In this document: piece after piece, positions 47,101 to 63,617 of the stretch
Position numbering within the stretch: the stretch's first letter is position 1
How the letters are laid out: each line of letters begins with the position of its first letter
From: Eubacteriales bacterium
GTDB lineage: Bacteria > Bacillota > Clostridia > Oscillospirales > CAG-272
Length of the DNA stretch: 64,000 nt
Assembly (NCBI GenBank): GCA_045659245.1
Contig: JAZOWN010000055.1
Span: 4,543-68,542, forward strand
Direction: 5' to 3'
Made by a program: the position numbers and the translations under genes
The notes under the pieces: model-generated
The model's input: only the letters and a program-made list of their open reading frames with translations
Told to the model about the DNA's origin: nothing
The model's database searches: none

Positions 47101-47642
47101 ACAAGCTTTGCGGAATTATATCGTCCCTTACTCTTAAAACGACCAAAAATAATCAGAAAATGGCGTTTATAACAGTAGAGGACAGATATGGCGAGATCGA
47201 ATGTCTTGTTTTCCCGAAGATATATACGCAGTTTTATCAGTATATTCGCGTTGATTCTCCCGTATATATTGAGGGAAGCGTTTCATTGCGCGAGGACGAG
47301 CGGCCGAAGATCCTTGTAAATGTGATAGACGAGCTTATTGATAACGCTAAGTATAAGCCAAGCACAGATACAAAGCCTGATAAAACAGGAGTAGTGACGA
47401 CTGTTGATGTTCACCCCACAAAGGCTTATACAAAAATATATCTACGAGTTCCGGATTTTAATTGCCGTGAGTATTTAAAGACAAAGAATTTAGTTGATAT
47501 TTTTGAGGGAAATGTAAAAGTAATTTTTTATAATTCCGAAAGCTCGACTTACGTTAATTATCAAGGCGGAATAACTGCTACTGAATATATACTTTCCGAG
47601 CTCCGAGAGATCTTAGGAAAAGAAAACGTAGTATTGAAATAG
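44130..47642 (+). CDS. dnaE: DNA polymerase III subunit alpha, DnaE-type
   Basis: 1170 aa. PHP FVHLHLHSEYSLLDG, VGPGRGSGAGSLVA, MPDIDIDF, HAAGLVV, FNKSHAAAY, C-terminal OB-fold region. GTG start 23 nt after the preceding stop. Confidence 0.95.
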   Translation: MTDVSEFVHLHLHSEYSLLDGACRISDIPVRAKECGHTAVALTDHGVMYGAVSFYRACIKEGIKPIIGCEVYIASGSRFDKTVYSDGNGKYNHLVLLCKNEVGYRNLIYLVSKSFTEGFYSKPRIDMELLKAHSEGLIALSACLAGKIPSLLSAGDYNAAVEYAKELSSIFGKDNFYIELQNHGLSEQLQILPQLVRLAEECSLPLVATNDCHYLRRENATTQAVLMCIQTNNVITDGRPIGFEVDEFYYKNTAEMKMLFGKYQGAIENTVKIADMCNFEFSFDEPKLPTYKTPDGLSSSKYLRSLVFKGIERRLADGSLVFEPQGEKAYLERIEYELSVISDMGYDDYFLIVQDYVAFAKSRDIPVGPGRGSGAGSLVAFLIGITDVDSIKFDLLFERFLNPERVSMPDIDIDFCYNRRDEVIQYMYDKYGSDHVSQIIAYGTLAARAAIRDVGRALGMTYADVDPVARAVPHELGMTLKDALKLPELKTLYESSEPVKRLVDTAMEIEGMPRNITVHAAGLVVTDEPIAKYVPLAVSNSAIVTQFDMDTIAQLGLLKFDFLALRYLTIMNDACSFVKEINPDFNISAVPYDDKATYDLISSGATLGVFQLESSGMRQMLSELRPERFDDIIAAIALYRPGPMDSIPKYIESRHNSDKISYDHPLLEPILRSTYGCIVYQEQVMSVFREMAGYTYGHADVVRRAMSKKKADVLNAEYESFILGAKERGVDETLAGKIFNDISSFANYAFNKSHAAAYAVISYRTAYLKAHYPCEYMAALMTSVLGNLTKLAEYITECGRFGIKVLPPDINESRTYFHPNNGNIVFGLLALKNVGKQFVENIIRERTGAPFADFEDFVQRMSDYDINKRMVEGLIKAGAFDKLGTYRSRLLSSYERLIDIRTEKNRSNISGQLDMFSSAFSSGNAEIAPKFEYPNVPDFSLKEKLMLEKESSGMYFSGHMIDSYSAHVESLNVTEIAELLDAEAVKEKQADKLCGIISSLTLKTTKNNQKMAFITVEDRYGEIECLVFPKIYTQFYQYIRVDSPVYIEGSVSLREDERPKILVNVIDELIDNAKYKPSTDTKPDKTGVVTTVDVHPTKAYTKIYLRVPDFNCREYLKTKNLVDIFEGNVKVIFYNSESSTYVNYQGGITATEYILSELREILGKENVVLK

Positions 47643-48197: not shown

Positions 48198-50660
48198 ATG
48201 GTAAAAGCGCTATTATCCAAAATATTAAAGATCTTCTTGTTGTTACTTATAGTTATCGGTGTCATGCTTACGGTGATCGGAATTTCCTTTGCAATATATA
48301 TTGACAGATACGTTGAAAAGAGCATTGATGAGAGCATGTTTTATATTGTAGGCTCTGATTCACAGACTAAAATCTACTATTATGAGTACGAGGACAGAAC
48401 AAACAGAGTGGGAGAGGCAGTCGAGCTTTCAGAGACCTTGTACGGAGGGTATAGGAGCAAATACGTCGCTTACGGACAAATCCCCGAATATCTGAAAGAC
48501 GCATTCGTCAGTATTGAGGATAAGCGATTTTATAAGCATAAGGGCGTTGACTGGTTCAGAACGTTGTCCGCGGGAGTAAATTATTATTTGAAATTCAGTG
48601 ACAGCTACGGCGGCTCTACCATAACCCAACAGCTAATAAAAAACGTTACGGATAAGGACGAATACTCGTTTCAAAGAAAAATTCAGGAAATATTCTGGGC
48701 GCTCGATCTTGAAACAAAGATGGATAAAAACGAAATACTTGAATTGTATTTAAACATCATAAATCTTTCGCAAGGGTGCTACGGTGTCGGCGCGGCGGCG
48801 GAATATTATTTCTCAAAGGATATCTCGGAGCTTACGCTTTCCGAATGCGCTTGTATCGCAGCGATCACAAACAGCCCCACCTATTACGATCCGATAAGAA
48901 ATCCCGAAAATAACGACAGAAGAAGATTGCTGATCCTCACTCAAATGTATGAGCTAGGATATATAAGTGAGGTAGAATACACGACCGCAAAAAACGAGCA
49001 AACGGTGCTAAACGTAAAGGAGAGCGGTGCAGAGACGGCAATTAACTCCTGGTACGTTGATATGGTCGTAGAGGACATTATGAACGATCTTATGAGCACT
49101 TACGGTTATAGCCGCCCTATGGCAAGCCTTGTGGTCTATACGGGGGGGCTTAAAATATACACAGTTATGGATCCCGACGTACAAGAAACGCTTGAAGAAT
49201 ACTATAAAGATCTATCTAACTTTTCGGTTGGAAAAGCGGATGTGCCGCAGTCCTCAATGATAGTAATTGATCCAAAAACGGGAGATATACTCGGTGTTGC
49301 GGGAGCGGTTGGTGAAAAGAACGCGAACCGAATACAGAATTATGCAACGTATACGGTACGTCCCGCAGGCTCGGTAATAAAGCCGCTGTCCGTTTATGCA
49401 CCGGCGATGGAGTCGGGAATAATTACGTGGTCGAGCGTGTATGACGATACCCCTGTAAATTTTGGCAATTATAATCTTGACAAGGAAAAGGGAAATATCG
49501 TTCAACCCGTGGCGTGGCCGAAAAATGCAAACGGAACGTATAGAGGGCTGACTAACGTAAACTACGCCATCGAGCATTCAATAAATACGGTTACGGTCAA
49601 GGTGCTCGAGGACCTCGGACTTGAGTCGTCATTTGATTTTCTTTACGAAAAGCTTAAAATGAAAAGCTTGATCGCTACGAAAACATTAAATAACGGAAGC
49701 GTTATTACAGACAAGGACTACGCAGCATTGGCGCTTGGACAGTTTAATTACGGAGTTACGGTGCGCGAGATCACTGCGGCATATTCAATTTTCGCAAATG
49801 ACGGTATATATAACAACTACCGTTCGTATTACGTTGTTACAGACTCGCATGACGAGCATGTCCTCGAAAATAAGTATCACGGAGAAGCGGTCATAAGCGA
49901 GGAAAACTCGGATATTATGACAATGATGCTTCAAAACGTGGTCGCAAACGGAACGGCAACAGATATAACTATTGATAAAAGTGTCAGCTGTGCGGGGAAA
50001 ACGGGAACGACACAAAACAAAAACGATCTTTGGTATATAGGTTACACTCCATATTTTATTGGCGGTGTTTGGCTTGGATACGAATATCCAAAGCCACTTA
50101 GTGATTATTCGAGCAATATTTGCATAAAGATATGGGATGATATAATGAAAGAGCTTCACTTCGAGTATATTTCAGAGGGAAATGTTCTTGATTTTTCGGT
50201 TAGTGATAATATAGTAGAGTGTGAGTATTGCGTAGATTCGGGGAAGCTTATCACAACAGCTTGCCGTCAAGACCCGAGAGGACAGAGAAGTGAAAAGGGA
50301 TATTTTGTAAAGGGAACAGTGCCTACCGAGCCTTGCGACAGACATGTTTCCGTTTCTTACGATTCTTTAAGCGGCGGAGTCATGGTTGGAGAATGTAAGG
50401 AAAACGTAACTAAGGTTGGACTTATAAAGGTGGAAAGAAGCTTTCCAATACAAATATACGTTACCGACGCGCAATATACTTGGCGTGATATCGGCAAGGA
50501 TGTTCTTCCCGAAACAGCACCAACGCTTCCATTTTATGATAATTTATTGAAGAAAGACACGTTTTCTGGTATAACCCGCACGGATAAACAATATAACAGA
50601 GCATGCAGGGAGCATTTTAACTATTTTGAATGGAAGAAAAAGCAAGAAGAAAGCGGCTGA
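48198..50660 (+). CDS. class A penicillin-binding protein (PBP1A family transglycosylase/transpeptidase)
   Basis: GT51 motifs SIEDKRFYKHKGVD, GGSTITQQL, RKIQE. Transpeptidase motifs SVIKP (SxxK), SIN (SxN), KTGTT. N-terminal membrane anchor. Confidence 0.9.
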   Translation: MVKALLSKILKIFLLLLIVIGVMLTVIGISFAIYIDRYVEKSIDESMFYIVGSDSQTKIYYYEYEDRTNRVGEAVELSETLYGGYRSKYVAYGQIPEYLKDAFVSIEDKRFYKHKGVDWFRTLSAGVNYYLKFSDSYGGSTITQQLIKNVTDKDEYSFQRKIQEIFWALDLETKMDKNEILELYLNIINLSQGCYGVGAAAEYYFSKDISELTLSECACIAAITNSPTYYDPIRNPENNDRRRLLILTQMYELGYISEVEYTTAKNEQTVLNVKESGAETAINSWYVDMVVEDIMNDLMSTYGYSRPMASLVVYTGGLKIYTVMDPDVQETLEEYYKDLSNFSVGKADVPQSSMIVIDPKTGDILGVAGAVGEKNANRIQNYATYTVRPAGSVIKPLSVYAPAMESGIITWSSVYDDTPVNFGNYNLDKEKGNIVQPVAWPKNANGTYRGLTNVNYAIEHSINTVTVKVLEDLGLESSFDFLYEKLKMKSLIATKTLNNGSVITDKDYAALALGQFNYGVTVREITAAYSIFANDGIYNNYRSYYVVTDSHDEHVLENKYHGEAVISEENSDIMTMMLQNVVANGTATDITIDKSVSCAGKTGTTQNKNDLWYIGYTPYFIGGVWLGYEYPKPLSDYSSNICIKIWDDIMKELHFEYISEGNVLDFSVSDNIVECEYCVDSGKLITTACRQDPRGQRSEKGYFVKGTVPTEPCDRHVSVSYDSLSGGVMVGECKENVTKVGLIKVERSFPIQIYVTDAQYTWRDIGKDVLPETAPTLPFYDNLLKKDTFSGITRTDKQYNRACREHFNYFEWKKKQEESG

Positions 50661-50680: not shown

Positions 50681-52438
50681 TTAGTTTGCGTTGTTAGCAA
50701 ATTGATTGTTATAAAGCTTTGTGTAGAAGCCGTTCATCACAAGAAGCTCTTTATGAGTACCTTGCTCAATGATATTTCCATCATTCATAACGAGAATTTT
50801 ATCGGCTTCGAGAATTGTTGATAGGCGGTGCGCGACAATAAAGGAGGTCTTACCGTCCATCATAGACGTAAATGCCTTTTGTATGCGTATTTCCGTTCTC
50901 GTATCTATTGAGGACGTAGCCTCGTCAAGTATGAGCATTTCGGGATTGGAGAGGATAACTCTTGCAATGCAAAGAAGCTGCTTTTGACCTTGCGAGAGCG
51001 TACCGCCGTCCTCACCTATAACAGTGTCGTATCCCGACGGAAGCTTTCTTATAAAGCTGTGAGCGTGCGCCGCCTTTGCTGCGGCTATGATCTCCTCGTC
51101 GGTTGCAGACGGTTTACCGAATCTAATGTTGTCCTTTATCGTTCCCGCAGAGAGCCACGTGTCCTGCAAAACCATTCCAAATGTATCGCGCAAAGTGTGG
51201 CGGGAAATATCCTTTATATTTCTTCCGTCAAGAAGTATCTCGCCCGATCTCACGTCGTAAAAACGCATAAGAAGATTTATAAGCGTAGTTTTTCCGCAAC
51301 CCGTAGGCCCGACTATTGCTATATGCTGTCCTGCCTCTACCGACAAATTGAAATCTTTTATAAGCACTTGATCGTCGGTGTACGAGAAGCATACGTTCTT
51401 AAATTCGACGTTACCCTTGAAATCTGCATTTTCGCCTCGTGCTTCTTCTTTGAGAGTGGGGGATTCAATAAGCTCAAATACGCGCTGTGCGCATGCAATT
51501 GAGTTTTGAAGCTCCGTGATAACTCCCGAAATCTCATTGAACGGCTTTGTGTACTGAGTTGAGTACGCAAGGAAGCTCGAGAGCATACCTACGCTCAACG
51601 CCATAGGGAAGCTTATGTGTACGAGCGCTCCGCAAAGCGCAACGAGAGCGTAGACTGTGGCGTTAACAAATCGTGTAGAGGGATTAGTGATAGATGAAAA
51701 GAATATCGCCTTTACCGATGCTTTACCGAGTCTATCGTTTATTTCGTTAAAATCGTCAATTGCAAATTTCTCTCTGTTGAATGCGAGAACAAGCTTATGT
51801 CCCGATATCGCCTCGTCAATAAGAGAGGTCTGCTCACCTCGTATCTCCGACTGAAGCTTGAACATCGAATACGTTCTTTTAGCTATAAATGAAGCAACGA
51901 AAAATGACAGAGGAGTAAGCAATACGACCAACAGAGTTATCGGTACGTTTATTACAAACATAAATAAAAGCGTTCCGACGATAGTTATAATGCTGCTGAA
52001 AAACTGTGTAAATCCAAGCAGAAGTCCGTCCGCGAATTGGTCGGTATCCGTAATAATTCTGCTTACCACCTCGCCCGTAGTGCGTGAGTCGATATAGGAG
52101 ACAGGGAAGCTCTGAAGCTTTACAAATGCCTCGTGACGGATATTTCGTACGATTCCGTAAGTCATGCGGTTGTTCAGTACGTTGATAAGCCACTGGAGAA
52201 GCGCAGTTATCATTACTGAGGCGCCTATCTTTATAAGTATTAAATATATTGCCTCGTGGTCGACAGCCCCCTTGCTGATCGCTTGGTCGATAGCCTGACC
52301 GACGAGAATTGGAACGTATAGGGTAAGAGCTACGGAAATTGCCGTAAATACGAGAGATAAAATGAAGTGAAGCCTATAAAATTTAAGATATTTCAGTATT
52401 TTGAAAAAAGCCTTAACGTTTCCTTTGTTTGCCTTCAT
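50681..52438 (-). CDS. ABC exporter fused permease/ATPase (heterodimer partner 2)
   Basis: 6-TM N-terminal half. Walker A GPTGCGKTT, signature LSQGQKQLLCIARV, Walker B LILDEATS. Confidence 0.85.
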   Translation of the reverse strand: MKANKGNVKAFFKILKYLKFYRLHFILSLVFTAISVALTLYVPILVGQAIDQAISKGAVDHEAIYLILIKIGASVMITALLQWLINVLNNRMTYGIVRNIRHEAFVKLQSFPVSYIDSRTTGEVVSRIITDTDQFADGLLLGFTQFFSSIITIVGTLLFMFVINVPITLLVVLLTPLSFFVASFIAKRTYSMFKLQSEIRGEQTSLIDEAISGHKLVLAFNREKFAIDDFNEINDRLGKASVKAIFFSSITNPSTRFVNATVYALVALCGALVHISFPMALSVGMLSSFLAYSTQYTKPFNEISGVITELQNSIACAQRVFELIESPTLKEEARGENADFKGNVEFKNVCFSYTDDQVLIKDFNLSVEAGQHIAIVGPTGCGKTTLINLLMRFYDVRSGEILLDGRNIKDISRHTLRDTFGMVLQDTWLSAGTIKDNIRFGKPSATDEEIIAAAKAAHAHSFIRKLPSGYDTVIGEDGGTLSQGQKQLLCIARVILSNPEMLILDEATSSIDTRTEIRIQKAFTSMMDGKTSFIVAHRLSTILEADKILVMNDGNIIEQGTHKELLVMNGFYTKLYNNQFANNAN

Positions 52439-54159
52439 TATTGCTCACCTCCTTTTGGGAACTGTGAGTAATAGATATCTTGGTAAACCTCAGACTCCGA
52501 TAGCAGATCGGCGTGCTTTCCGGCTCCTACAAGGCGACCGTCGTCATGCACGAGAATAAGATCTGCATTCATAAGCGATGCCGCTCTTTGTGATACGATA
52601 AACACGGTGGGATTATATTCAAGATCGGCAATGGCAGAGAGCAGCTTTGACTCCGTTAAAAAGTCAAGGGCGGATGTCGCGTCGTCCAAAACCAAAATTT
52701 CAGGTTTCTTCATGAGTGCACGAGCGATGGTGAGTCTTTGACGCTGACCGCCCGAAAAGTTATTTCCGTTTTGAGCTACCTCGGTGTCAAGTCCTTCTTT
52801 TTCTTCTACAAACTCCTTTGCCTGCGCTAGCTCCAATACGTTCCAAGCATCTTCATCTGTTGCATTGGGGTTGCCCCATTCAAGATTTGAACGAATATTG
52901 CCCTTAAAAAGTCTGGGGCTTTGAGGAACAACACCGACGATATTGCAAAGCTCCTCCTTTTCATATTCGCAAGCGTTTTTGCCGTTAATGAATACGTTTC
53001 CGCACTTAGGTGAATAAAGACCGGGTATAAGATTTACAAGCGTGCTCTTTCCCGAGCCCGTTCCGCCGATTATTCCGACTCTTTGCCCTTTTTTTATTGA
53101 AAAGCTTATGCCCTCAATAGCACAGTCGCCGTGTTCACTGTATCCGAAAGAAACGTTTTGGAAATTAACCGAACTACCGTCGTCGCAAGTCCTTACATCA
53201 GCCTCTTTTCTTTGCTCTGCGGGCATAGCAAGTATGGCGGATACGCGCGAAGCGCTTGCAGCAGCCTTAGTCAGAGTGATTATAAGAGAGGCAAGCTTTA
53301 TAAGCTCAACTAAAATTTGCGACATATAGTTATAAAGCGCAACGAGTTCACCTTGGGTTATATCTCCCGAGTCAACCTTTAACGCGCCCGAACGGATAAG
53401 TATAATGATGGCAAAATTTATGATTACGTAAGTAAGGGGATTCATAAGAGCGGAAATACGTCCCGCGAACATCTGGATTTTTGTAAGCTTATTGTTTTTA
53501 TCGTCGAAATCGGCAGTTTCCTCAAGCTCGCGATTAAAGGCTCTTACAACTCTCGTACCGTTGAAGTTGGAGCGAACCTTTCCCAGTACAGAATCAAGGC
53601 TTGATTGCGATTTTTTGAATACGGGCATGCTTATAAGCATAATACCGAACACGACAATTGCCAAAAGGGGAATTGTGACAGCAAAAATGAGAGCCAAGCG
53701 CACGTCTATCGTAAACGCCATTATCATAGCACCGAAAACTATAAACGGCGAGCGCATAAACAGACGCAGAAACATGTTTATTCCCGTTTGCACGGAATTT
53801 ATGTCCCCCGTCATTCTCGTAATAAGGGTTGACGTACCGAGCTTGTCCGTATCCGCGTAACTGAAGGATTGAATATGCGCAAAAAGCTTGCTTCTGATTT
53901 TTGTAGAAACGCCAACAGCGGTCTTTGCGGAAAAATATTGAGCGCATATAGCGGAGATCAAGCCAACAATACCGAGCAAAAGCATAACCCCACACATTAA
54001 AAAGACGGTGCGCGTGTCATTCTGCCCGATTCCGACGTCCATAATTCTTGTTACCGCTAACGGAACTAACAGCTCAAAAATTGCCTCAAGGCATATAAAA
54101 AGAGGGGCAAGCACAGACTGAACTCTGTACCCCTTAAAAAATTTAAGTAACGATTTCAA
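52438..54159 (-). CDS. ABC exporter fused permease/ATPase (heterodimer partner 1)
   Basis: 6-TM N-terminal half. Walker A GGTGSGKST, signature FSGGQRQRLTIARAL, Walker B LVLDDATS. Its stop overlaps the partner's ATG by 1 nt (TAATG). TTG start after GGAGGAG. Confidence 0.85.
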   Translation of the reverse strand: MKSLLKFFKGYRVQSVLAPLFICLEAIFELLVPLAVTRIMDVGIGQNDTRTVFLMCGVMLLLGIVGLISAICAQYFSAKTAVGVSTKIRSKLFAHIQSFSYADTDKLGTSTLITRMTGDINSVQTGINMFLRLFMRSPFIVFGAMIMAFTIDVRLALIFAVTIPLLAIVVFGIMLISMPVFKKSQSSLDSVLGKVRSNFNGTRVVRAFNRELEETADFDDKNNKLTKIQMFAGRISALMNPLTYVIINFAIIILIRSGALKVDSGDITQGELVALYNYMSQILVELIKLASLIITLTKAAASASRVSAILAMPAEQRKEADVRTCDDGSSVNFQNVSFGYSEHGDCAIEGISFSIKKGQRVGIIGGTGSGKSTLVNLIPGLYSPKCGNVFINGKNACEYEKEELCNIVGVVPQSPRLFKGNIRSNLEWGNPNATDEDAWNVLELAQAKEFVEEKEGLDTEVAQNGNNFSGGQRQRLTIARALMKKPEILVLDDATSALDFLTESKLLSAIADLEYNPTVFIVSQRAASLMNADLILVHDDGRLVGAGKHADLLSESEVYQDIYYSQFPKGGEQ

Positions 54160-54286: not shown

Positions 54287-54363
54287 GGAGGCATAGCTCA
54301 GTTGGTTAGAGTACTTGCTTGACATGCAAGGGGTCGCAGATTCGAGTTCTGCTGTCTCCACCA
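54287..54363 (+). tRNA. tRNA-Val (anticodon GAC), CCA-encoded
   Basis: Hand-folded cloverleaf: acceptor GGAGGCA/TGTCTCC, D arm GCTC-AGTTGGTTA-GAGT, anticodon arm CTTGC-TTGACAT-GCAAG, variable GGGTC, T arm GCAGA-TTCGAGT-TCTGC, discriminator A, CCA. 77 nt. Confidence 0.9.
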
Positions 54364-54504: not shown

Positions 54505-54524
54505 AGATTCTGAGTTCTGCTGTC
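54505..54524 (+). repeat. direct duplicate of the tRNA-Val 3' end (T-arm/acceptor fragment)
   Basis: AGATTCtGAGTTCTGCTGTC matches tRNA positions 54338..54356 (AGATTCGAGTTCTGCTGTC) with a single inserted T. It overlaps the stop codon of the spoVB-like gene. Confidence 0.7.
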
Positions 54525-56091
54525 ATTTGGTTTTTAACATATATTTTACTCTATTTACTACCTTTTCCGCCTTAATACCTCTGCAAATAATAAGGAAAAG
54601 CACGTACAAAAGGGAAGAGATGACTATAAGCACCCATACGTTGCTAACGGATAATATTTTTCCGAAGAAGATATTTACAAGCTGTGTAGAAGCGATTATG
54701 CAAGCAAGTGGTCTGCCTATCCAGAGAAATGCGCGTGTCTTTACGCGGCTTTTCATAAGCAACCGTGTTATGCTTAAAACGCCATTTAGTATTTCGGTAA
54801 AATAAACGGTTACTATGTATCCCATGATCCCCATGCTCGGAAGAAGTATCGCGACAAGTATGACGGATATTAGCGCGTCTACAATATTAACTATCATAGA
54901 GTACACGTGCTCTCCCATGCCCTTGAGCATGGCATCAACGGCGGTATCAAGATACATTACGGGAATAAGCGGAGCTATCATTAGTATGTATTTTCCCGCA
55001 TCGGTTGCTTCGGGATAAACTGTCTGTCCGAGTCTTAATGAAAAGCACATTATTACGCCCGCACAGCCTATTGAAAACATAAGTACTGTTTCAAGCACAG
55101 TACAAACTATGCCCTTAATTCTTCGCTCATCACCCACAGAGAATGATTCTGCAACCTCGGGAATAAGAAGCCCCGCAAATGATGCGCTTATCGCAGCGGG
55201 GAACAGAACAAGGGGAAATACCATACTGCCAACTGTTCCGTAAGCCGCCAAGGAAAGGTCGCGCGAGCTTCCGCTTTTTTCAAGTCCTATAGGAATGAGA
55301 ATATGCTCGATCGTAATAAGAGCGGAGCGCATATAGGCGCTGAATGCAAGCGGAAGTGCATTTTCAATCACCTTTTTTGTCATCGATCTGCCTGCCGAGG
55401 TCGGCGAGTCGGAAGCTACTTTTTTTCGTTCCGTTAAGTAAAGCATCAATCCTATAAAGAACGAAATAATCTCGGAGAGCGCACCGCCGCATATTACTGC
55501 AAGGCAGGCACTTTCGGTGTCCTTCGCACTCCAAAGAGAAAGAAAAGCGATACATGCAAAAATTCTTATTCCTTGTCCGAGAATTTGCGTAACGGCGTTT
55601 TTGTATACGTGTCTTACCGCCGAAAAATATCCGCCGAGCACAGAGGACACCGATATTGGAACAAACGTCAGAGAAAGCACCTTAAGCGGCAAAACAGTTC
55701 GCTCGTCGCGTAAAATTCCAATACCGATATTTGAGGAAAATAAAAAAAGCACCACGGTTGCTATTATGCTGAAAAACAAAGCATAAAGAACGCAACGAAT
55801 AAGTATTTTTCTTACTTCATTTCGCTTTTTTGCAGGTACGCCTCTCTCGTTTGACTCCGATGTATCTCCTATGGCTTCCGCAACGATACGTGTGGTCGCA
55901 AGGCTTATTCCCGAGGTCGCAAAGGTTATTCCAAAGCCGTACACGGTCGAGATCAGCGAAAAAAGTCCCATGGCAACTGCGCCGATACGGTTGGATATAT
56001 AAACGTTAAAAGCCATTGAAACAGAGCGTATAAGCAGCGTTACCACCGCCATTAATGCGCCGTTCATAACAAACCTTCTTAATCTGTTCAT
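54523..56091 (-). CDS. MOP-superfamily flippase, SpoVB/MurJ-like (stage V sporulation protein B candidate)
   Basis: MNRLRRFVMNGALMAVVTLLIRSVSMAFNVYISNRIGAVAMGLFSLISTVYGFGITFATSGISLATTRIVAEA parallels the SpoVB N-terminus. About 14 TM segments. Start moved to ATG at complement(56089..56091) after GGAG. The 59-codon upstream extension in the track runs through the guaB promoter. Confidence 0.65.
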   Translation of the reverse strand: MNRLRRFVMNGALMAVVTLLIRSVSMAFNVYISNRIGAVAMGLFSLISTVYGFGITFATSGISLATTRIVAEAIGDTSESNERGVPAKKRNEVRKILIRCVLYALFFSIIATVVLFLFSSNIGIGILRDERTVLPLKVLSLTFVPISVSSVLGGYFSAVRHVYKNAVTQILGQGIRIFACIAFLSLWSAKDTESACLAVICGGALSEIISFFIGLMLYLTERKKVASDSPTSAGRSMTKKVIENALPLAFSAYMRSALITIEHILIPIGLEKSGSSRDLSLAAYGTVGSMVFPLVLFPAAISASFAGLLIPEVAESFSVGDERRIKGIVCTVLETVLMFSIGCAGVIMCFSLRLGQTVYPEATDAGKYILMIAPLIPVMYLDTAVDAMLKGMGEHVYSMIVNIVDALISVILVAILLPSMGIMGYIVTVYFTEILNGVLSITRLLMKSRVKTRAFLWIGRPLACIIASTQLVNIFFGKILSVSNVWVLIVISSLLYVLFLIICRGIKAEKVVNRVKYMLKTK

Positions 56092-56197
56092 CACGCACTC
56101 CTGAAATTTATACTTAACTATATGCAACTTTCTGCATTGATATATAAAAATGACCCCAAAAAAGTACTTTTTGACGAATAAAATCTTTATAAAACAG

Positions 56198-56226
56198 TTG
56201 ACAAAAGTCGAATAATTTGATATAAT
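56198..56226 (+). promoter_or_regulatory. consensus sigma-A promoter for guaB
   Basis: TTGACA (56198..56203), 17 nt, TATAAT (56221..56226). Confidence 0.6.
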
Positions 56227-56245
56227 ATTTCCTAATAAATTATGA

Positions 56246-57745
<1,500 letters not shown>

Positions 57746-57761
57746 TTTTAACAGTAAATAT

Positions 57762-57799
57762 AAAAGCACTGCAAATTTTTCCGGTTTGCAGTGCTTTTT
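57762..57799 (+). terminator. intrinsic terminator after guaB
   Basis: 14-bp stem AAAAGCACTGCAAA / TTTGCAGTGCTTTT with a T-run. Confidence 0.8.
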
Positions 57800-57896
57800 C
57801 TTGCTTTTTAACCTTAAAAAAACAAAAAAGGTATATACAAAAATCTTTTTCTGTGATATAATGTATTATGTATATATTTTTTTATTCGGAGTTTTT

Positions 57897-58721
57897 ATGG
57901 AAAACAAAAAATTTAAGGGTAATAAAAATGAACGCGGAAGATTTAACGACCGCCGCAACGGTAAAAATTTTCAGGACGAAACTGTCAACGAGGGACTGGT
58001 CGTCGGTAGAAATGCGGTAAGAGAGCTTTTGAAATCAGGGCGTGATGTGGATAAGATCTTCGTTCAGCGCGGAGAGCGCGAGGGCTCTATCGTCGTTCTC
58101 GTTTCCGAAGCAATCGAGCGCCATATTCCCGTAGTCGAGGTTGAAAAAGCTAAGCTTGACAAAATGACCGCATTCGCTACACACCAAGGAATAGTTGCAA
58201 TGGCGGCAGAAAAGGAATACTGCACGGTTGACGATATTCTTGCAATCGCGGAGCAAAGAGGAGAAAGACCTTTTATCGTTATTGCCGACGGTATTACTGA
58301 TCCACATAATCTTGGTGCGCTGATAAGATGCGCCGAGGGAGTTGGGGCACATGGACTTATAATCCCCAAGCGCCGCGCCGTCGGACTTACTCCCGTTGTG
58401 ACAAAGGCGTCCTGCGGTGCTATTGAACACCTTGCAATAGCAAAGGTAACAAATCTTGCATCTACTGTTGATATACTACGCCAAAAAGGAATTTGGGTAT
58501 TTGCGGCAGAAGCGGGCGGAGATGCTTACTACAATACCGATTTTAAATGTCCTTGTGCTATCGTTCTTGGTAGCGAGGGCGAGGGAGTATCACGCTTACT
58601 CAAGGAAAAGTCCGATTATATAACCTCTATTCCGATGTACGGACACGTTAATTCGTTTAACGTATCAACGGCAGCCGCCGTAATTCTTGCAGAGGTAGCA
58701 AAGCAACACAGACTATCCTGA
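57897..58721 (+). CDS. rlmB: 23S rRNA (guanosine-2'-O)-methyltransferase RlmB / SpoU-TrmH family
   Basis: Basic N-terminal tail, L30e-like GRNAVRELLKSG, SpoU blocks DPHNLGALIRCAEG, LGSEGEGVS, SFNVSTAAAV. ATG 57897 follows GGAG. The upstream 165 codons of track ORF 57402.. overlap guaB and its terminator. Confidence 0.8.
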   Translation: MENKKFKGNKNERGRFNDRRNGKNFQDETVNEGLVVGRNAVRELLKSGRDVDKIFVQRGEREGSIVVLVSEAIERHIPVVEVEKAKLDKMTAFATHQGIVAMAAEKEYCTVDDILAIAEQRGERPFIVIADGITDPHNLGALIRCAEGVGAHGLIIPKRRAVGLTPVVTKASCGAIEHLAIAKVTNLASTVDILRQKGIWVFAAEAGGDAYYNTDFKCPCAIVLGSEGEGVSRLLKEKSDYITSIPMYGHVNSFNVSTAAAVILAEVAKQHRLS

Positions 58722-58735
58722 TTTTTGGAGGCAAT

Positions 58736-61700
58736 ATGAGCAGAGAACAGAACATTGACGATATTTTACAGCTTCTTAAGGATTCCTATTCAGGCGAGTC
58801 CTCAGAAGAATCGGTCGTTAATATTGAGGCTTCAGATCAAAGTATATCAAACGAGGCTTTACAGGAGCAGCTAAAAAATCAATACATAAGCACGTCCGAC
58901 TCGTATGAATCTGAAAAAGCAGATAGCGCTGACGGTTATTTTATTGACGATGATTTTCTTGCAGAGGCAGTCTTGGCGGAAGCGCTTGATGCTGAGCAGC
59001 TCACCGAAGACAAAGAGGTGTTTGAGTCCGAAGACTCTCACGACTCAGTAGGCGTTATTCTTGAGGAAATTGACAGTCAGCCGACACGCGCCTTCGAATT
59101 TTTACAAAAGACGCTCAACGAAGCGACGGAAGACGAAGAAGAAATCTATGAAGATGATCTTCCCGAGGATAACGTCGATGAGCTTATAGCGGCTATGTCA
59201 CCAATACCCGAAGATGAATTTAATAATGACGAGCTGCTTGACGAGACAGTCGAAGTTGAGGCGTTTTTTGACGAGATCTTATCTGATGTTGAGAACACCT
59301 TCGATGTGAAAGAGCTTTTTGAAGAAAATGTAGGAAATGAAGTAAATGAAGAACATGAAGAAGATGTTGAGAATTTCATTTTCTCTGAGGAGTCTCTGAT
59401 CGAAGAGATCGCCTTGGAGCTCGAAACTCCGGAATTTGATGAGCAGGAGCAAATTTACGCGGATAAAAGTCTTGATGACGAAATATTCGTTGACGAAGAC
59501 GCGCCCGTTGAATTTTCAAGCGAGGACGAGGAAAGCGTAGAAGTTGCTGCTGATATTGCTCCTGTCGTGGAAGAAAAAGCAGAAAAGCATGAAACGTTCC
59601 TGGCTTCCATGAGAAAAACGGGAATTGATTTCACAACGGACGAAATATACAACTCGACCGTTGAAAAATCTCACACCAAAGAAGAACCAGTTACGGACGA
59701 ACAAGCAGATATACTGAACACCATCAACGATCAAGAAAAATTTGAAGAGGCACCCATAACAGCTGACGAGGAGCTTGACCTCTCAACAATAAACATTATG
59801 ATGCAGTTCTGCGAGAAGCAGGAGCTCGAAAAGACGATCGGTGACGAAAAGGTAGACGGATTCTTAAAGGCTGAAGATCTAACTGCAAACGAAGGGGAAG
59901 TGTTTAGGGAATTTGACGATAAAGAATACGCTGACGCTTCTCAGAACGACGAGATTCTCGCGAAATACAAGAAGAATCACAAAAGTGCGCTTCTTTCGAT
60001 GCTTGGATGCATAGCGATCGCGGCACTTGCGTTTGTATACGAGCTTCTTCCTTTGTTTGACGTAGAGCTTTCCGGAATACTCAGTTACGTTGAATATCCC
60101 GCTGTATATGCTTTACTTGGATTACAGTTCGTGGCGTTTGCGGCGGCTATATGCTACAAAAAGCTTTGGAACGGAATGAAGGGAGCGTTTTCGCTCACTC
60201 CGAACACATATTCGATAATTGCTATAATATTATGGCTTACGGCGATTTATGATACGGTAGTCGTTATAATACTCAGCGTTGCAGGCGATGCCTTGCCTTC
60301 GATGTATAACGCAACGGCAGTAATTATAACCGCACTTCTTGCATCTGCCGAGTATCTTACGGTAGTTCTTGAAATGAAGGCATTTGAGGTGTATTCCTCG
60401 GATGCAAAGAAATATACGGCTATAAAGGAAGCGCGCCGTGGCGGTATTGGCTCAAAGATGTACGACGGAGGACTTGAGGAGGATAAGGCGGTCTATTCCA
60501 TAAAGAGCGTTGATTTTCCGAACGGATTTTTCAGAAGCATAAAAGCTAAGCATTCCAAAAACAAGCTTCTTACAGTTCTTATTATACCTGTTCTCGTGAT
60601 AGGAATAATTGCCTCTGTGGTGTCCGCAATTCTCGGTTCGTCCGCATATGCATCAAGTGCCGCATTTATCGTATGCGTTTACGCAATTTTGCCCGTTGTA
60701 TTAATATTTACAGAGATATTACCTTATACAGTAGCAATGATTAAGCTTTCTAAGAGAGGAAGCGCATTTGCAGGCATAGAAGCAGTCAAGAAATATGATA
60801 ACTGTAACGTATTCGTATTTAACGATTTGCACATGTTCAAAAAGTGTAAGACCGAGGATGTTGGTATTGCAATATACGATACTTCCGTCGGATACCTGGT
60901 CCTTGGCTGTATAGACGCACTGTATTCAAAGATCGGCGGACCTCTTTCGGGAATGAAAATGAATCTTCCCGACGTATTTAAATTCCAAAACGTTTCGATC
61001 AAGCGAATTACCAAAAACGGAATAGAAGCCATTATAGACAAGAAACACACTCTTGTTGTGGGAGAGGCTGCATTCTTGCAACGCTACGGTCTTAATTTTC
61101 CGCCCAACGAAAAGGATAACGGCAGGTCAACGCTCTGCGTCTCGCTTAACGGAAAAATAAGCGCAAAGCTCAGCGTGAAATATGAAGCCGAGCCTGTGTT
61201 TGAGATGCTTGTCGAAAGACTGAATGCGGATGGTATCTCCTCTGCTATTGAGACCTACGATCCGCTTATAAACAGCTCGATGGTCGCTTCTGCAAGAACT
61301 CTTGGCGACTCGCCCATTAGTGTTGTACATAAGAAATCCGAGGACTTTAAAACAGAAAGCAGCAACCGTTACAGAAGTGAGGCGGACGGCGTCATTTCTT
61401 GTGGCTCGCGTCTTAAGCTGGCGGAACTTATCGTGTGGATAAAGAAGCTCTCGAGGCTTAACGGAATAACACAAAAAATTGCTATCGCGTTTTCTTCATT
61501 AGGAGCTGTATTGGCAGCCTTGATATTAGTGTTTGGTATTACGGAATACGTAAATCAGCTCTATATACTTTTCTATTTGCTTGCGGAAGCGATAACGATG
61601 CTTGTCCTGACCTTTGCTTTGCTGCCGACATCGAAATATTTTACGGTTGACGCACTTTACCGAGAGCTTGAGAAAAACAACACAAGGCTTTTAGAAAAGC

Positions 61701-61771
61701 AGCAGAAGGAAGCACAGCGACAGCTCAAAAAGTCCAAAAAACCAAAGAAACCGAGTGAAATTAATGAATAA
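58736..61771 (+). CDS. large membrane protein: hyper-acidic ~410-aa N-terminal region plus degenerate P-type-ATPase-like core (catalytic motifs absent)
   Basis: Continuous 1011-codon ORF with Shine-Dalgarno TGGAGG upstream. D/E-rich aa 1-410, about 8 TM segments, by-eye alignment to P1B ATPase blocks with DKTGT->NDLHM (60821..60835), TGDN->TYDP, no TGES, no GDGxND. The CDS itself is well supported. The fold assignment is tentative. Confidence 0.55.
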   Translation: MSREQNIDDILQLLKDSYSGESSEESVVNIEASDQSISNEALQEQLKNQYISTSDSYESEKADSADGYFIDDDFLAEAVLAEALDAEQLTEDKEVFESEDSHDSVGVILEEIDSQPTRAFEFLQKTLNEATEDEEEIYEDDLPEDNVDELIAAMSPIPEDEFNNDELLDETVEVEAFFDEILSDVENTFDVKELFEENVGNEVNEEHEEDVENFIFSEESLIEEIALELETPEFDEQEQIYADKSLDDEIFVDEDAPVEFSSEDEESVEVAADIAPVVEEKAEKHETFLASMRKTGIDFTTDEIYNSTVEKSHTKEEPVTDEQADILNTINDQEKFEEAPITADEELDLSTINIMMQFCEKQELEKTIGDEKVDGFLKAEDLTANEGEVFREFDDKEYADASQNDEILAKYKKNHKSALLSMLGCIAIAALAFVYELLPLFDVELSGILSYVEYPAVYALLGLQFVAFAAAICYKKLWNGMKGAFSLTPNTYSIIAIILWLTAIYDTVVVIILSVAGDALPSMYNATAVIITALLASAEYLTVVLEMKAFEVYSSDAKKYTAIKEARRGGIGSKMYDGGLEEDKAVYSIKSVDFPNGFFRSIKAKHSKNKLLTVLIIPVLVIGIIASVVSAILGSSAYASSAAFIVCVYAILPVVLIFTEILPYTVAMIKLSKRGSAFAGIEAVKKYDNCNVFVFNDLHMFKKCKTEDVGIAIYDTSVGYLVLGCIDALYSKIGGPLSGMKMNLPDVFKFQNVSIKRITKNGIEAIIDKKHTLVVGEAAFLQRYGLNFPPNEKDNGRSTLCVSLNGKISAKLSVKYEAEPVFEMLVERLNADGISSAIETYDPLINSSMVASARTLGDSPISVVHKKSEDFKTESSNRYRSEADGVISCGSRLKLAELIVWIKKLSRLNGITQKIAIAFSSLGAVLAALILVFGITEYVNQLYILFYLLAEAITMLVLTFALLPTSKYFTVDALYRELEKNNTRLLEKQQKEAQRQLKKSKKPKKPSEINE

Positions 61772-63617
61772 TCAGATCAGTACAATTTTAAAATCAGTAT
61801 CAAAGCCCGGAAGATATTCGGGCGGAGAATACGGCCAGATCATAAAAGATAAAGAAAAAGTAAAAGCGCGTTTTGCCTTTTGCTTTCCTGATACTTACGA
61901 AATAGGAATGTCCAATCTTGGCATGAGAATACTTTATGGTGTTCTCAACCAAGAGGAGGACGTTTGGTGTGAAAGAGTCTATGATCCTTGGCTTGACATG
62001 CAGGAGAAGATGGTAGAGCATGACATTCCGCTGACTGCGTGTGAGAGCGGAGATACTATCTCTGAGTTTGACATGATAGGCTTTACGCTTCAGTACGAAA
62101 TGAGCTATACGAACGTCTTGAACATGTTAAAGCTTGCTAAGCTTCCGCTCTATGCAAAGGACAGAGATGATTCAATGCCTATAATCATCGGCGGCGGACC
62201 TTGCGCGTATAATGCAGAACCGGTTGCAGACTTTTTCGATCTTTTTAACATAGGCGAGGGCGAGGAAATGCTTCCCGAGCTTTGCCGTCTTTACATAAAA
62301 ATGAAGGACGCGGGAAGATACACCAAAGCAGAGTATCTCCACGAGGCAGCTAAAACCATAAAGGGAATTTACGTACCCTCACTCTATGAGGTTACGTATA
62401 ATGATGACGGTACTGTAAAGGCGTACACCCCGAAATACGACGATATACCCACGAAAATTCAGAAGCGAATTATGACGGATATGGATAGGTCGTATTTTCC
62501 CGACAAGGTGGTTATGCCGTATATCGAAACTGTTCACGACAGAGTTATGCTTGAGGTGTTCAGAGGCTGTATACGAGGTTGCCGCTTCTGTCAGGCGGGA
62601 ATTATTTACCGTCCTGTCAGAGAAAAATCCCCCGAGGTCCTCAACGAGCAGGCGAAGTGCCTTTACGAGGCTACGGGATACGACGAAATTTCTCTTACCT
62701 CACTTTCAATAAGCGATTATACAGAGCTTCCCGAGCTTACCGATATGCTTCTTGAATGGACGAATGATAATATGGTAAGTCTATCGCTTCCGTCCTTGCG
62801 TGTAGATAGCTTCACAAAGGAGCTTATGGACAAAATTGCGTCTGTACGCTCGTCGTCGCTCACGTTTGCGCCCGAAGCGGGAACACAAAGACTGCGCGAC
62901 GTAATAAATAAAAACGTTCGCGAGGAGGACCTTATGCGCGCCGTGAACGTTGCGTTTGAGGCTGGTAAAAACACAGTAAAGCTCTACTTTATGTCAGGAC
63001 TTCCGACGGAAACTTACGACGACTTAAAGGGAATTGCCGAGCTTGCTTCTCACGTTATAGATGAGTATTACCGTTGTCCGAACAGAAACCGCGCAAAGAA
63101 GCCGCAGGTTACTATCAGTGTTTCCTGCTTTATCCCCAAGCCCTTTACGCCGTTCCAATGGGAGGCGCAGGATACTATGGAAATGCTTGCTGAAAAGCAG
63201 GAGTACCTTGGTTCGCAGATAACCGACAAAAAGATAAGATACACCCATCACGATGCAAAGGTCAGCCGTATTGAAGCGGTGCTTGCAAGAGGGGACCGAC
63301 GACTTGCTCCCGCACTTGCGCTTGCTGCTGACGAGGGCTTTAAGTTTGATGCGTGGGATGAATGCTTCGATTACGACAAGTGGATCTCCGTATTTGAAAG
63401 ATGCGGTATTGATCCGGCGTTCTACGCAAACAGAAAGTTTGGTCTTGACGAGGTTTTGCCTTGGGATATTATTGATTGCGGAGTTACCAAGGAATTTCTC
63501 CGTCGTGAGCGTGACAAGGCTTATGCAGAGAATACAACGCCCAATTGCCGCGAGCATTGCAGCGGTTGCGGAGCTAACAGACTTGGAGGTGAGCGCACGT
63601 GCTGTCCGAAGAAATAA
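61764..63617 (+). CDS. B12-binding-domain radical SAM protein (TIGR03960-like)
   Basis: N-terminal KPGRYSGGEYG, B12-like domain, radical-SAM cluster CIRGCRFCQAG, C-terminal Cys-rich CREHCSGCGAN. ATG 61764 overlaps the upstream stop by 8 nt. Confidence 0.8.
   Translation: MNNQISTILKSVSKPGRYSGGEYGQIIKDKEKVKARFAFCFPDTYEIGMSNLGMRILYGVLNQEEDVWCERVYDPWLDMQEKMVEHDIPLTACESGDTISEFDMIGFTLQYEMSYTNVLNMLKLAKLPLYAKDRDDSMPIIIGGGPCAYNAEPVADFFDLFNIGEGEEMLPELCRLYIKMKDAGRYTKAEYLHEAAKTIKGIYVPSLYEVTYNDDGTVKAYTPKYDDIPTKIQKRIMTDMDRSYFPDKVVMPYIETVHDRVMLEVFRGCIRGCRFCQAGIIYRPVREKSPEVLNEQAKCLYEATGYDEISLTSLSISDYTELPELTDMLLEWTNDNMVSLSLPSLRVDSFTKELMDKIASVRSSSLTFAPEAGTQRLRDVINKNVREEDLMRAVNVAFEAGKNTVKLYFMSGLPTETYDDLKGIAELASHVIDEYYRCPNRNRAKKPQVTISVSCFIPKPFTPFQWEAQDTMEMLAEKQEYLGSQITDKKIRYTHHDAKVSRIEAVLARGDRRLAPALALAADEGFKFDAWDECFDYDKWISVFERCGIDPAFYANRKFGLDEVLPWDIIDCGVTKEFLRRERDKAYAENTTPNCREHCSGCGANRLGGERTCCPKK

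Follow-up and report, generated by a model that had tools for sequence, protein, structure and literature searches.

A P1B-ATPase-like membrane protein with an apparently remodelled catalytic cleft, encoded between rlmB and a radical SAM gene in uncultured Clostridia

The window analysed here is a 64,000-nucleotide stretch of contig JAZOWN010000055.1 (assembly GCA_045659245.1) from a Eubacteriales bacterium, and the subject of this study is a single gene of the window, referred to as gene X, which encodes a membrane protein with a long acidic N-terminal region (Table 1). X lies between an rlmB-type gene and a radical SAM gene. Its Shine-Dalgarno sequence sits within the 14-nt spacer that follows the rlmB stop codon, while the radical SAM gene starts at an ATG (61764) that overlaps the TAA stop of X by 8 nt (ATGAATAA, window 61764-61771), which suggests translational coupling; in related loci the distance from X to the radical SAM gene ranged from -4 to +114 nt. 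Few membrane machines are understood as well as the P-type ATPases, which textbooks define by the motif DKTGT. A first-pass annotation of the window had described X as a P-type ATPase with every catalytic motif erased. The analysis presented below indicates that the C-terminal 600 residues of X are homologous to P1B-type ATPases, and that X represents an old, maintained pseudo-pump family and not a decaying copy. As judged from its sequence, the cleft of the protein appears to be remodelled, not degraded or erased, and carries D697, H699, GGPLS, NGIE, T840-x-D842-P and H865.

Homology was assessed with domain models, single-sequence and profile searches and a structure model. Scans of the full X protein and of its C-terminal 603 residues against Pfam-A and NCBIfam gave no P-type or HAD match and only sub-threshold noise (CNNM, DUF3267), with the result that the Pfam check proposed by the first-pass annotation (E1-E2_ATPase, Hydrolase/HAD) returned nothing. 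A search of the PDB with the single sequence gave a best E value of 0.06, to the P/N domain of CopB. These results would suit the view that the resemblance to P-type ATPases is a chance alignment, made by eye, of a generic multi-pass membrane protein. That view is ruled out by the profile and structure comparisons, and we give it almost no credence. A profile built from an alignment of 88 homologues of X (alignment A1) matched L. pneumophila CopA (3RFU) with E=3.1e-10 over a span from M3/M4 to the TGD strand, and every match with E<0.1 was to a P-type ATPase, among them ATP7B, CadA and CopB and, more weakly and in the M4 region only, the Na,K- and H,K-ATPases. Comparison of A1 with E. coli CopA using hhalign gave a probability of 96.3% (E=1.6e-9) over 406 columns, from helix MB of X, where the alignment begins at CopA residue 213, to the strand after TGD. 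For residues 409-1011, a template-free AlphaFold2 model had a mean pLDDT (predicted local distance difference test score) of 91.5 and a pTM (predicted template modelling score) of 0.87. When this model was compared with the PDB by Foldseek, the listed top 50 matches were all P-type ATPases (E 2.4e-12 to ~1e-5, probability 1.0, TM-score ~0.5), the best nine being P1B pumps (CopA, ATP7B; E 2.4e-12 to 5e-10), followed by KdpB and ZntA. The moderate TM-score is that expected for multi-domain proteins in different conformations.

The model contains eight transmembrane (TM) helices and two cytoplasmic inserts, in agreement with the reading of the first-pass annotation, which had noted about eight hydrophobic segments and two soluble loops in P1B order. 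The membrane core has the 2+2+2+2 topology of P1B pumps, in which MA and the kinked MB are the extra helix pair specific to this type and M1 and M2 are the first core pair, and a HAD-like P domain, into which the N domain is inserted behind the first strand, lies between M4 and M5. The best profile and fold matches of X are the P1B pumps CopA (L. pneumophila, 3RFU/4BBJ; A. fulgidus; E. coli), ATP7B, ZntA and CadA, with which it also shares a helix-breaking proline in M4, a hinge helix (Y/D...F-E-x-L) and a T-x-D motif that ends the second P strand. X retains elements which couple the headpiece to the membrane, namely the proline kink in M4 and the long stalk of M5. The start of this stalk carries a conserved S891-R-L-K-L-A-E, and a conserved P964 follows M6. 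Residues 971-1011 contain 29% K+R, with the C-terminal helix and the last ten residues together forming a basic tail.

Residue frequencies were determined in 220 aligned representatives of two clades, a core clade and a sister clade, and motif patterns were checked by regular expression in 328 relatives, each of at least 600 residues. In M4, P653 (60692-60694) aligns with the proline of CPC and is conserved in 100% of the core clade and 98% of the sister clade. CPC itself is replaced by L652-P653-V654, with variable flanking positions; HMMER and hhalign both align allPisl with IACPCAL, and the AlphaFold2 model breaks the M4 helix at 652-654. At the phosphorylation site, the strand register (DVMVF with DTVVF) places N696 opposite D523 of E. 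coli CopA and D697 opposite the lysine of DKTGT. The core clade varies at position 696 (N 28%, S 14%, G 12%, E 12%, K 8%); in the sister clade 86% of sequences have D or E there. The adjacent D697 is conserved in 100% of the core clade and 93% of the sister clade, and H699, found in 94% of the core clade, gives way in the sister clade to D, E or N. There the motif is [DE]-D-[KR]-[DE]-V-F-P, which can be read either as a retained canonical aspartate or as a DK/DxD motif shifted by one residue.

Within the N domain, SEHPL of the pumps is replaced by IGGPL(S) (G734-G-P-L-S-738), in which G734, G735 and P736 are 93-100% conserved. The adenine-binding histidine of P1B pumps has become Gly and the upstream glutamate Tyr (Y730), G-x-G-V has become (K/R)-N-G-I-E (760-764) with loss of the first glycine, and v-G-N has become V-G-(D/E) (VVG776 in X) with loss of the asparagine; a proline, a leucine and two glycines of the nucleotide site are common to X and the pumps. 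In the second part of the P domain, Y816 is 100% conserved and is followed by F822-E823, and TGDN is replaced by T840-Y-D842-P843 (61253-61264), the glycine having become Y/F and the asparagine P. T840 is conserved at 99% (T or S in 99% of the sister clade), D842 at 99-100% and P843 at 96-99%. The strand ISVV ends at H865 (61328-61330), which is present in 98% of the core clade and replaced by R/K in the sister clade. Overall D697, G734, G735, P736, G776, Y816, T840, D842 and P843 are conserved at 93-100% in the core clade, and Y816, G776, P736 and D842 at 95-100% in the sister clade.

Other parts of the pump are physically missing. The strand-helix-strand element that carries GDGxNDxP is absent: helix 868-874 and strand 886-889 lie only 11 residues apart, ~45 fewer than in CopA, and the profile alignments stop just before this gap. 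The A-like domain comprises ~56 residues, compared with ~115 in P1B pumps, and lacks the TGE glutamate. A conserved G578-G579 (95-98% in the core clade, 100% in A2, an alignment of 81 sequences) lies in this region, and hhalign, with low confidence and large deletions, set KMYDGGL opposite AMLTGEP of CopA; on this tentative alignment the TGE loop would persist as x-G-G, the glutamate being lost. The P1B ion-site residues YN and MxxSS were absent from M5 and M6 of X, and no HMA metal-binding domain was found in X by Pfam, a 400-residue acidic disordered tail standing in its place. DKTGT, GDGxND and TGE were found at the proper site in none of the 328 relatives. The strings DKTGS, GDGQND and TGES that do occur in four of them (P0026, P0230, P0266, P0272) lie at wrong positions and were rejected as chance matches. 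By comparison [TS]-x-D-P was present in 325 relatives, GGP[LM] in 302 and F-x-D-x-x-h-F in 315.

The alignments proposed by eye in the first-pass annotation can be judged against these results. The pairing of NDLHM with DKTGT, the N-domain parallel and the change of TGDN to TYDP were all reproduced by HMMER and hhalign, and the deletion of GDGxNDxP and the short A domain without TGE were likewise borne out. The counterpart of CPC had been placed at LPY (661-663), nine residues from its true position. The proposed parallel of ExADIVLM with SEADGVISC, after the deletion, had no detectable sequence support, as hhalign of the family C-terminus (residues 855-1000) against the CopA C-terminus showed no similarity, although a strand followed by a 40-residue helix into M5 makes it topologically plausible. 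The description of every catalytic motif as erased was too strong, given that P653, T-x-D-P and D697 are essentially invariant. The same holds for the claimed lack of a phospho-Asp: DKTGT is indeed missing throughout the relatives, but an invariant aspartate lies one residue further on and the canonical position is acidic in most of the sister clade.

The family to which X belongs is large, conserved and unnamed, and occurs mostly in uncultured Clostridia. A profile search of 1.84 billion cluster representatives (clusters at 50% identity) returned 2012 proteins with E<=1e-30, of which the best 150 span nearly the whole profile, and 92 close homologues of X were found. A search with the sister-clade C-terminal domain gave 863 further proteins, all named 'hypothetical protein', while a profile search with full-length sister-clade proteins was swamped by their acidic low-complexity tails and gave 7 matches. 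A genome scan with a single peptide pattern derived from A2 found 18 loci, all in metagenome-assembled genomes (MAGs). Named relatives are all 'hypothetical protein', and the MAGs are labelled Oscillospiraceae, Ruminococcaceae, Eubacteriales, Lachnospiraceae or Clostridia. Neither precomputed Pfam domains among the relatives nor a lookup of cluster names returned a family, in keeping with the statement of the first-pass annotation that it knew of no characterised family of this kind. The public sequencing runs that contain the sequence of X are bovine-gut and faecal metagenomes.

Selection on X was estimated by the Nei-Gojobori method against the orthologue at locus L009, which is 88% identical over the C-terminal 603 residues. 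Omega (dN/dS) was 0.10 for the whole gene, 0.033 for the P/N headpiece, 0.055 for the TM + A region, 0.16 for the N-terminal tail (residues 1-408) and 0.14 for the C-terminal end; dS was ~1.1, which is high yet estimable, more distant pairs being saturated. X is regarded as part of an old, maintained family because purifying selection is present and strongest on the headpiece, and because the motifs have been lost in all relatives. The first-pass annotation had asked for a dN/dS estimate and had named orthologues with intact motifs as evidence that would refute it; the former indicated purifying selection and none of the latter was found. A recent, pseudogene-like decay of a CopA/ZntA-type pump in one genome would explain why the catalytic motifs are missing from the window copy. 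This explanation was rejected on the conserved motif states and on omega values far below 1, and we regard it as having a negligible chance of being correct: X is an intact ORF of 1011 codons with a strong Shine-Dalgarno sequence, the same substitutions are found in all relatives down to ~20% identity, omega lies between 0.03 and 0.16 in all segments, and the family comprises thousands of clusters. Among the features of a pseudoenzyme, X shows homology to an enzyme family, loss of catalytic residues and purifying selection; loss of the ancestral activity is predicted.

A passive channel, uniporter or lipid-handling protein, in which the degenerate headpiece would act as gate or plug, was also considered and appears improbable. 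Such a protein would account for the retention of the eight-helix core and the M4 proline kink, for the conserved polar and charged residues E436, Q464 and, in the core clade, D506, which lie inside or at the ends of TM helices, and for the constraint on the TM + A region. However, position 506 is D in only 20% of the sister clade, the canonical binding-site residues of M4, M5 and M6 are all absent, and the TM sequences are, by column conservation, the least conserved folded part of X. Moreover no transport-related genes lie beside X, the partners of which are enzymes of RNA-modification type.

With respect to ion pumping, the E1P/E2P cycle requires the aspartate of DKTGT, Mg2+ bound through GDGxNDxP, an N domain that positions ATP, the glutamate of TGE in a mobile A domain and ion ligands in M4-M6 (PMC10654040). 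In X the segment for Mg2+ is deleted and the four other requirements are substituted in every relative, and because of this we consider ATP-driven pumping by X to be excluded with high, though not absolute, confidence, on the evidence of sequence.

The main rival to a non-pumping descendant is an enzyme of HAD/P-type that has diverged strongly but remains catalytic, whether as a slow pump, as a phosphatase or as the acceptor in a phospho-relay, with D697, T840 and D842 supporting a non-canonical phosphoryl chemistry. In such an enzyme D697 would be the phospho-acceptor or nucleophile by a one-residue shift, with H699 (core clade) or D/E (sister clade) as n+2 acid/base; T840 would serve as motif II, H865 or K/R as the motif III-like cation, and D842 would replace the motif IV ligand. 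The near-invariance of D697, of T840 (T/S), D842 and P843 (96-100%) and of the M4 proline is consistent with this, as is the fact that omega is lowest on the P/N headpiece; the sister-clade motif keeps a 'DK' and, counted from D697, reads D-[KR]-[DE], a D-x-D as in motif I of HAD phosphatases (DxDx[TV], S/T, K/R, acidic motif IV). The P domain of X can be described as a reduced HAD/Rossmann fold with T840 at motif II. Motif I is present only if shifted by one residue (core clade D697-x-H699, sister clade D-x-[DE]), motif III is doubtful (H865 or R/K), and the strand of motif IV is absent, unlike in HAD phosphatases. To our knowledge, the GDGxNDxP strand-helix-strand holds Mg2+ in every HAD and P-type enzyme, and its deletion weighs against catalysis. 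So do the replacement of the TGE glutamate by Gly in a much shortened A domain, the replacement of the adenine-binding His, the Glu and the first Gly, the failure to find ion-binding residues in M4-M6, a register which sets D697 opposite Lys and not Asp, and the lack of any match to the Pfam HAD and E1-E2 models. Because four defining motifs were tested and not found as a set, X appears, by sequence, to be no member of the functional enzyme class but a homologue only, and we hold a catalytic X to be rather unlikely.

The first 400 residues of X contain 32.8% D+E and have a net charge of -109. Within this region, largely predicted to be disordered, AlphaFold2 placed helices at 7-19, 39-51 and 72-86, with a helical bundle at 349-384 just before MA, and these helices coincide with islands of conservation (Table 1). 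Residues 1-18 are among the most conserved stretches of the whole protein and have a sister-clade equivalent, S-x-x-ELL-x-x-L-x-x-N. The juxtamembrane motif (residues 347-369) reads LD-x-S-TINLMMQF-x-x-x-x-ELE-x-TIG and is conserved by both clades as D-x-NLM-x-A-x-G-x-EDEL-x-K-x-VG. Acidic disorder interrupted by short conserved helices is the pattern of a tethered interaction or autoregulatory tail, and the N-terminal region of X may well be of this kind.

The genomic setting of X was compared in 31 related loci, using annotated loci and tblastn. An rlmB-type gene lay directly upstream in 30/30 loci for which that flank was available, with spacers of 14-60 nt, and a radical SAM gene lay directly downstream in 30/31, with DUF2344 next or fused. 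In L007/L008 the radical SAM and DUF2344 parts are fused into one protein. The cassette rlmB–X–radical SAM–DUF2344, conserved in loci L001-L009 and L011-L031, was also found in the sister clade and in relatives of ~20% identity with unrelated outer flanks (glgB/SLH; a sigma factor and the germination protease GPR; tig-clpP-clpX). Its conservation through rearrangements argues for co-transcription and probably for a functional link. X differs from the P1B pumps in lying in a cassette of RNA-modification type and not in a metal-resistance operon. The radical SAM and DUF2344 members of the cassette are uncharacterised. When the region 56279-63617 of the window was compared with L009, L005 and L011-L027, core-clade identities were 33-88% for the C-terminal domain of X, 89-100% for guaB, 73-97% for rlmB and 84-98% for the radical SAM protein. 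Fast divergence of X is as expected for a protein freed from catalytic constraints.

Taking these results together, we are inclined, by a modest degree, to read X as a repurposed, non-pumping descendant of a P1B ATPase, a pseudo-pump that acts as switch or scaffold. It has kept the eight-helix P1B core including the M4 proline, and the P domain with its inserted N domain, and has lost the GDGxNDxP strand, TGE and most of the A domain, the adenine-binding His/Glu and the CPC/YN/MxxSS ligands, the core clade having also lost the acidic residue at the phospho-Asp position; a protein so altered should be unable to run an ATP-driven E1P/E2P transport cycle. The cleft between the P and N domains would most likely bind either a small ligand, anionic or metal, or the peptide of a partner. 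Occupancy of the cleft could be relayed through the P domain to M4/M5, as in real pumps, which would make X a membrane-embedded conformational switch. The acidic tail, in replacing the metal-binding domains of P1B pumps, may serve as a tethered interaction platform and/or an autoregulatory tail, and the scaffold would pass the event at the cleft to the membrane domain and/or to the tail, which in turn would recruit or regulate partners. These partners are plausibly the co-encoded RNA-modification-type enzymes, as the invariable place of X in the cassette suggests partners or outputs in RNA or ribosome modification. The pseudo-ATPase proposed by the first-pass annotation is thus supported by profile and structure homology, family-wide loss of motifs and selection, with the amendment that the site seems remodelled and that non-canonical chemistry or ligand binding is possible.

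Several observations weigh against the pseudo-pump reading. The invariant aspartate beside the phospho-Asp position, T-x-D and the M4 proline would also fit a divergent active enzyme. It is the headpiece and not the tail that is the most conserved part of X, and this speaks against X serving purely as a scaffold. Its synteny with rlmB and the radical SAM gene denotes co-transcription and not necessarily a common function, and a search of RNA runs for expression of X returned DNA metagenomes only (bovine gut, faeces). A further reading takes X as a new class of protein, with a novel ligand, metal or phosphoryl cleft that switches core and tail in order to bring the RlmB-type methyltransferase and the radical SAM/DUF2344 proteins to the membrane or to regulate them there. 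We put this forward as a tentative and somewhat unlikely possibility; if true, it would mean an unexpected physical link from a pump scaffold to RNA or ribosome modification in Clostridia.

Two other systems offer a comparison for a pseudo-pump. KdpB, the P1A subunit of KdpFABC, ranked directly behind the P1B pumps among the fold matches (E=8e-10 to 1e-6) and resembles X in being a compact bacterial P-type core that forms one part of a larger assembly. It keeps all catalytic motifs, however, and is without the MA/MB pair, and X has no KdpA-, KdpC- or KdpF-like neighbours. In the P4-ATPase modules of alveolate guanylate cyclases (P4GC; Cryptosporidium, Plasmodium GC-beta), the aspartate of DKTGT and the glutamate of LDGET are altered or missing in some lineages, and the degenerate P-type module is thought to be regulatory and not pumping (PMC13466520). 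P4GC modules are eukaryotic, of P4 (flippase) type and fused to a cyclase, with a motif loss that is partial and lineage-specific, whereas X is a free-standing bacterial protein of P1B origin whose losses are far greater and include the deletion of motif IV. No bacterial P-type ATPase described as pseudo, inactive or DKTGT-less came up in a literature search, P4GC being the sole precedent found.

TCDB lists families of 'functionally uncharacterised P-type ATPase', which, as far as is known, retain the signature motifs. The family of X keeps a P1B scaffold under strong selection without the motifs for phosphorylation, dephosphorylation, Mg2+, nucleotide and ion site. It would be the first clear prokaryotic pseudo-pump, and a natural experiment on what the P-type scaffold does without its catalytic cycle. 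The assignment also provides a structural label for a 'hypothetical protein' that is abundant in uncultured Clostridia of the gut and rumen, and the four-gene cassette could help to assign functions to its radical SAM and DUF2344 members too.

Table 1. Positions of gene X, its predicted domains and motifs, and neighbouring features in the window
Feature	Position in window	Strand	Basis or remark
Gene X, whole ORF, 1011 aa	58736..61771	+	ORF list; acidic disordered N-terminal region and P1B-ATPase-like membrane core
Shine-Dalgarno GGAGG of X	58727..58731	+	Read in sequence; 4 nt before ATG
Conserved island M-x-x-EQNIDDIL-x-LLK-x-SV, aa 1-18	58736..58789	+	Column conservation 0.7; AlphaFold2 helix 7-19
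Acidic, predicted-disordered region, aa 20-345	58793..59770	+	33.7% D+E, net charge -96; pLDDT mostly <50
Conserved island S-x-E-x-L-x-x-x-LK-x-QY, aa 38-50			
Conserved island Y-x-x-D-x-DFL-x-E, aa 68-77			
Conserved island ETF-x-ASMRK-x-G-x-DFT, aa 286-300			
Juxtamembrane helices, aa 348-384	59777..59887	+	AlphaFold2 helices 349-358, 361-368, 370-384, pLDDT ~80
MA 401-437, MB/MB' 455-472 / 474-484 (kinked), M1 491-516, M2 525-553	59936..60394	+	AlphaFold2, hhalign
Vestigial A (actuator)-like domain, aa 554-609	60395..60562	+	AlphaFold2: two strands and two short helices
M3 610-632; M4 637-651 / 655-673, broken at P653	60563..60754	+	AlphaFold2, HMMER, hhalign
P domain, first part, aa 676-708 (strand 690-696 and motif I remnant)	60761..60859	+	HMMER/hhalign to CopA, AlphaFold2
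N696-D697-L698-H699-M700 in place of DKTGT	60821..60835	+	Strand register, residue frequencies
N (nucleotide-binding)-like domain, aa 709-815	60860..61180	+	HMMER to L. pneumophila CopA, ATP7B, CopB; hhalign
P domain, second part, aa 816-890	61181..61405	+	Alignments, AlphaFold2, residue frequencies
M5 with cytoplasmic stalk 893-932 (40-residue helix) and M6 941-962	61412..61621	+	AlphaFold2, whole-chain Foldseek
C-terminal cytoplasmic helix, aa 971-1001	61646..61738	+	AlphaFold2; core clade only, sister-clade proteins terminating directly after M6
RlmB/TrmH-type RNA 2'-O-methyltransferase gene	57897..58721	+	Pfam SpoU_sub_bind and SpoU_methylase; stop 14 nt before X start
Radical SAM gene downstream of X	61764..63617	+	Radical_SAM_N2 and Radical_SAM; followed by DUF2344 in related loci
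Class A penicillin-binding protein	48198-50660	+	
Adjacent pair of genes for ABC exporter half-transporters	50681-54159	-	
MurJ/SpoVB-like Polysacc_synt/MatE flippase gene	54523-56268	-	

Within the cassette, residues 1-30 of RlmB (57897-57990) form a basic N-terminal extension rich in K, R, N and G (MENKKFKGNKNERGRFNDRRNGKNF...), which is present in core-clade loci and in L007 and absent in L006, L029 and L030. A pairing of this basic tail with the acidic tail of X was considered as a general feature and rejected, the tail being absent from sister-clade RlmB; where it is present the extension could pair electrostatically with the acidic tail of X, which would not be universal. Against L009, dS of guaB was 0.17, far below the value for X, and this gap suggests either a codon-usage constraint on guaB or recombination in the region. 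In related loci guaB is flanked by the same flippase and ABC genes as in the window. The sister-clade locus L030, with the germination protease GPR (Peptidase_A25) near X (18-929), implies that at least some hosts of the X family are spore formers.

Elsewhere the window also encodes polC, dnaE, the class A penicillin-binding protein, the two ABC exporters and guaB. The presence of PolC is characteristic of a Bacillota chromosome. The genes polC (37433-41824) and dnaE (44130-47642) lie on the same strand in an unusually close pairing, with only the gene of a 751-residue DUF5722 protein (41851-44106) between them. A single tRNA gene at 54287-54360 was the sole Rfam match at gathering threshold in the 64-kb window.

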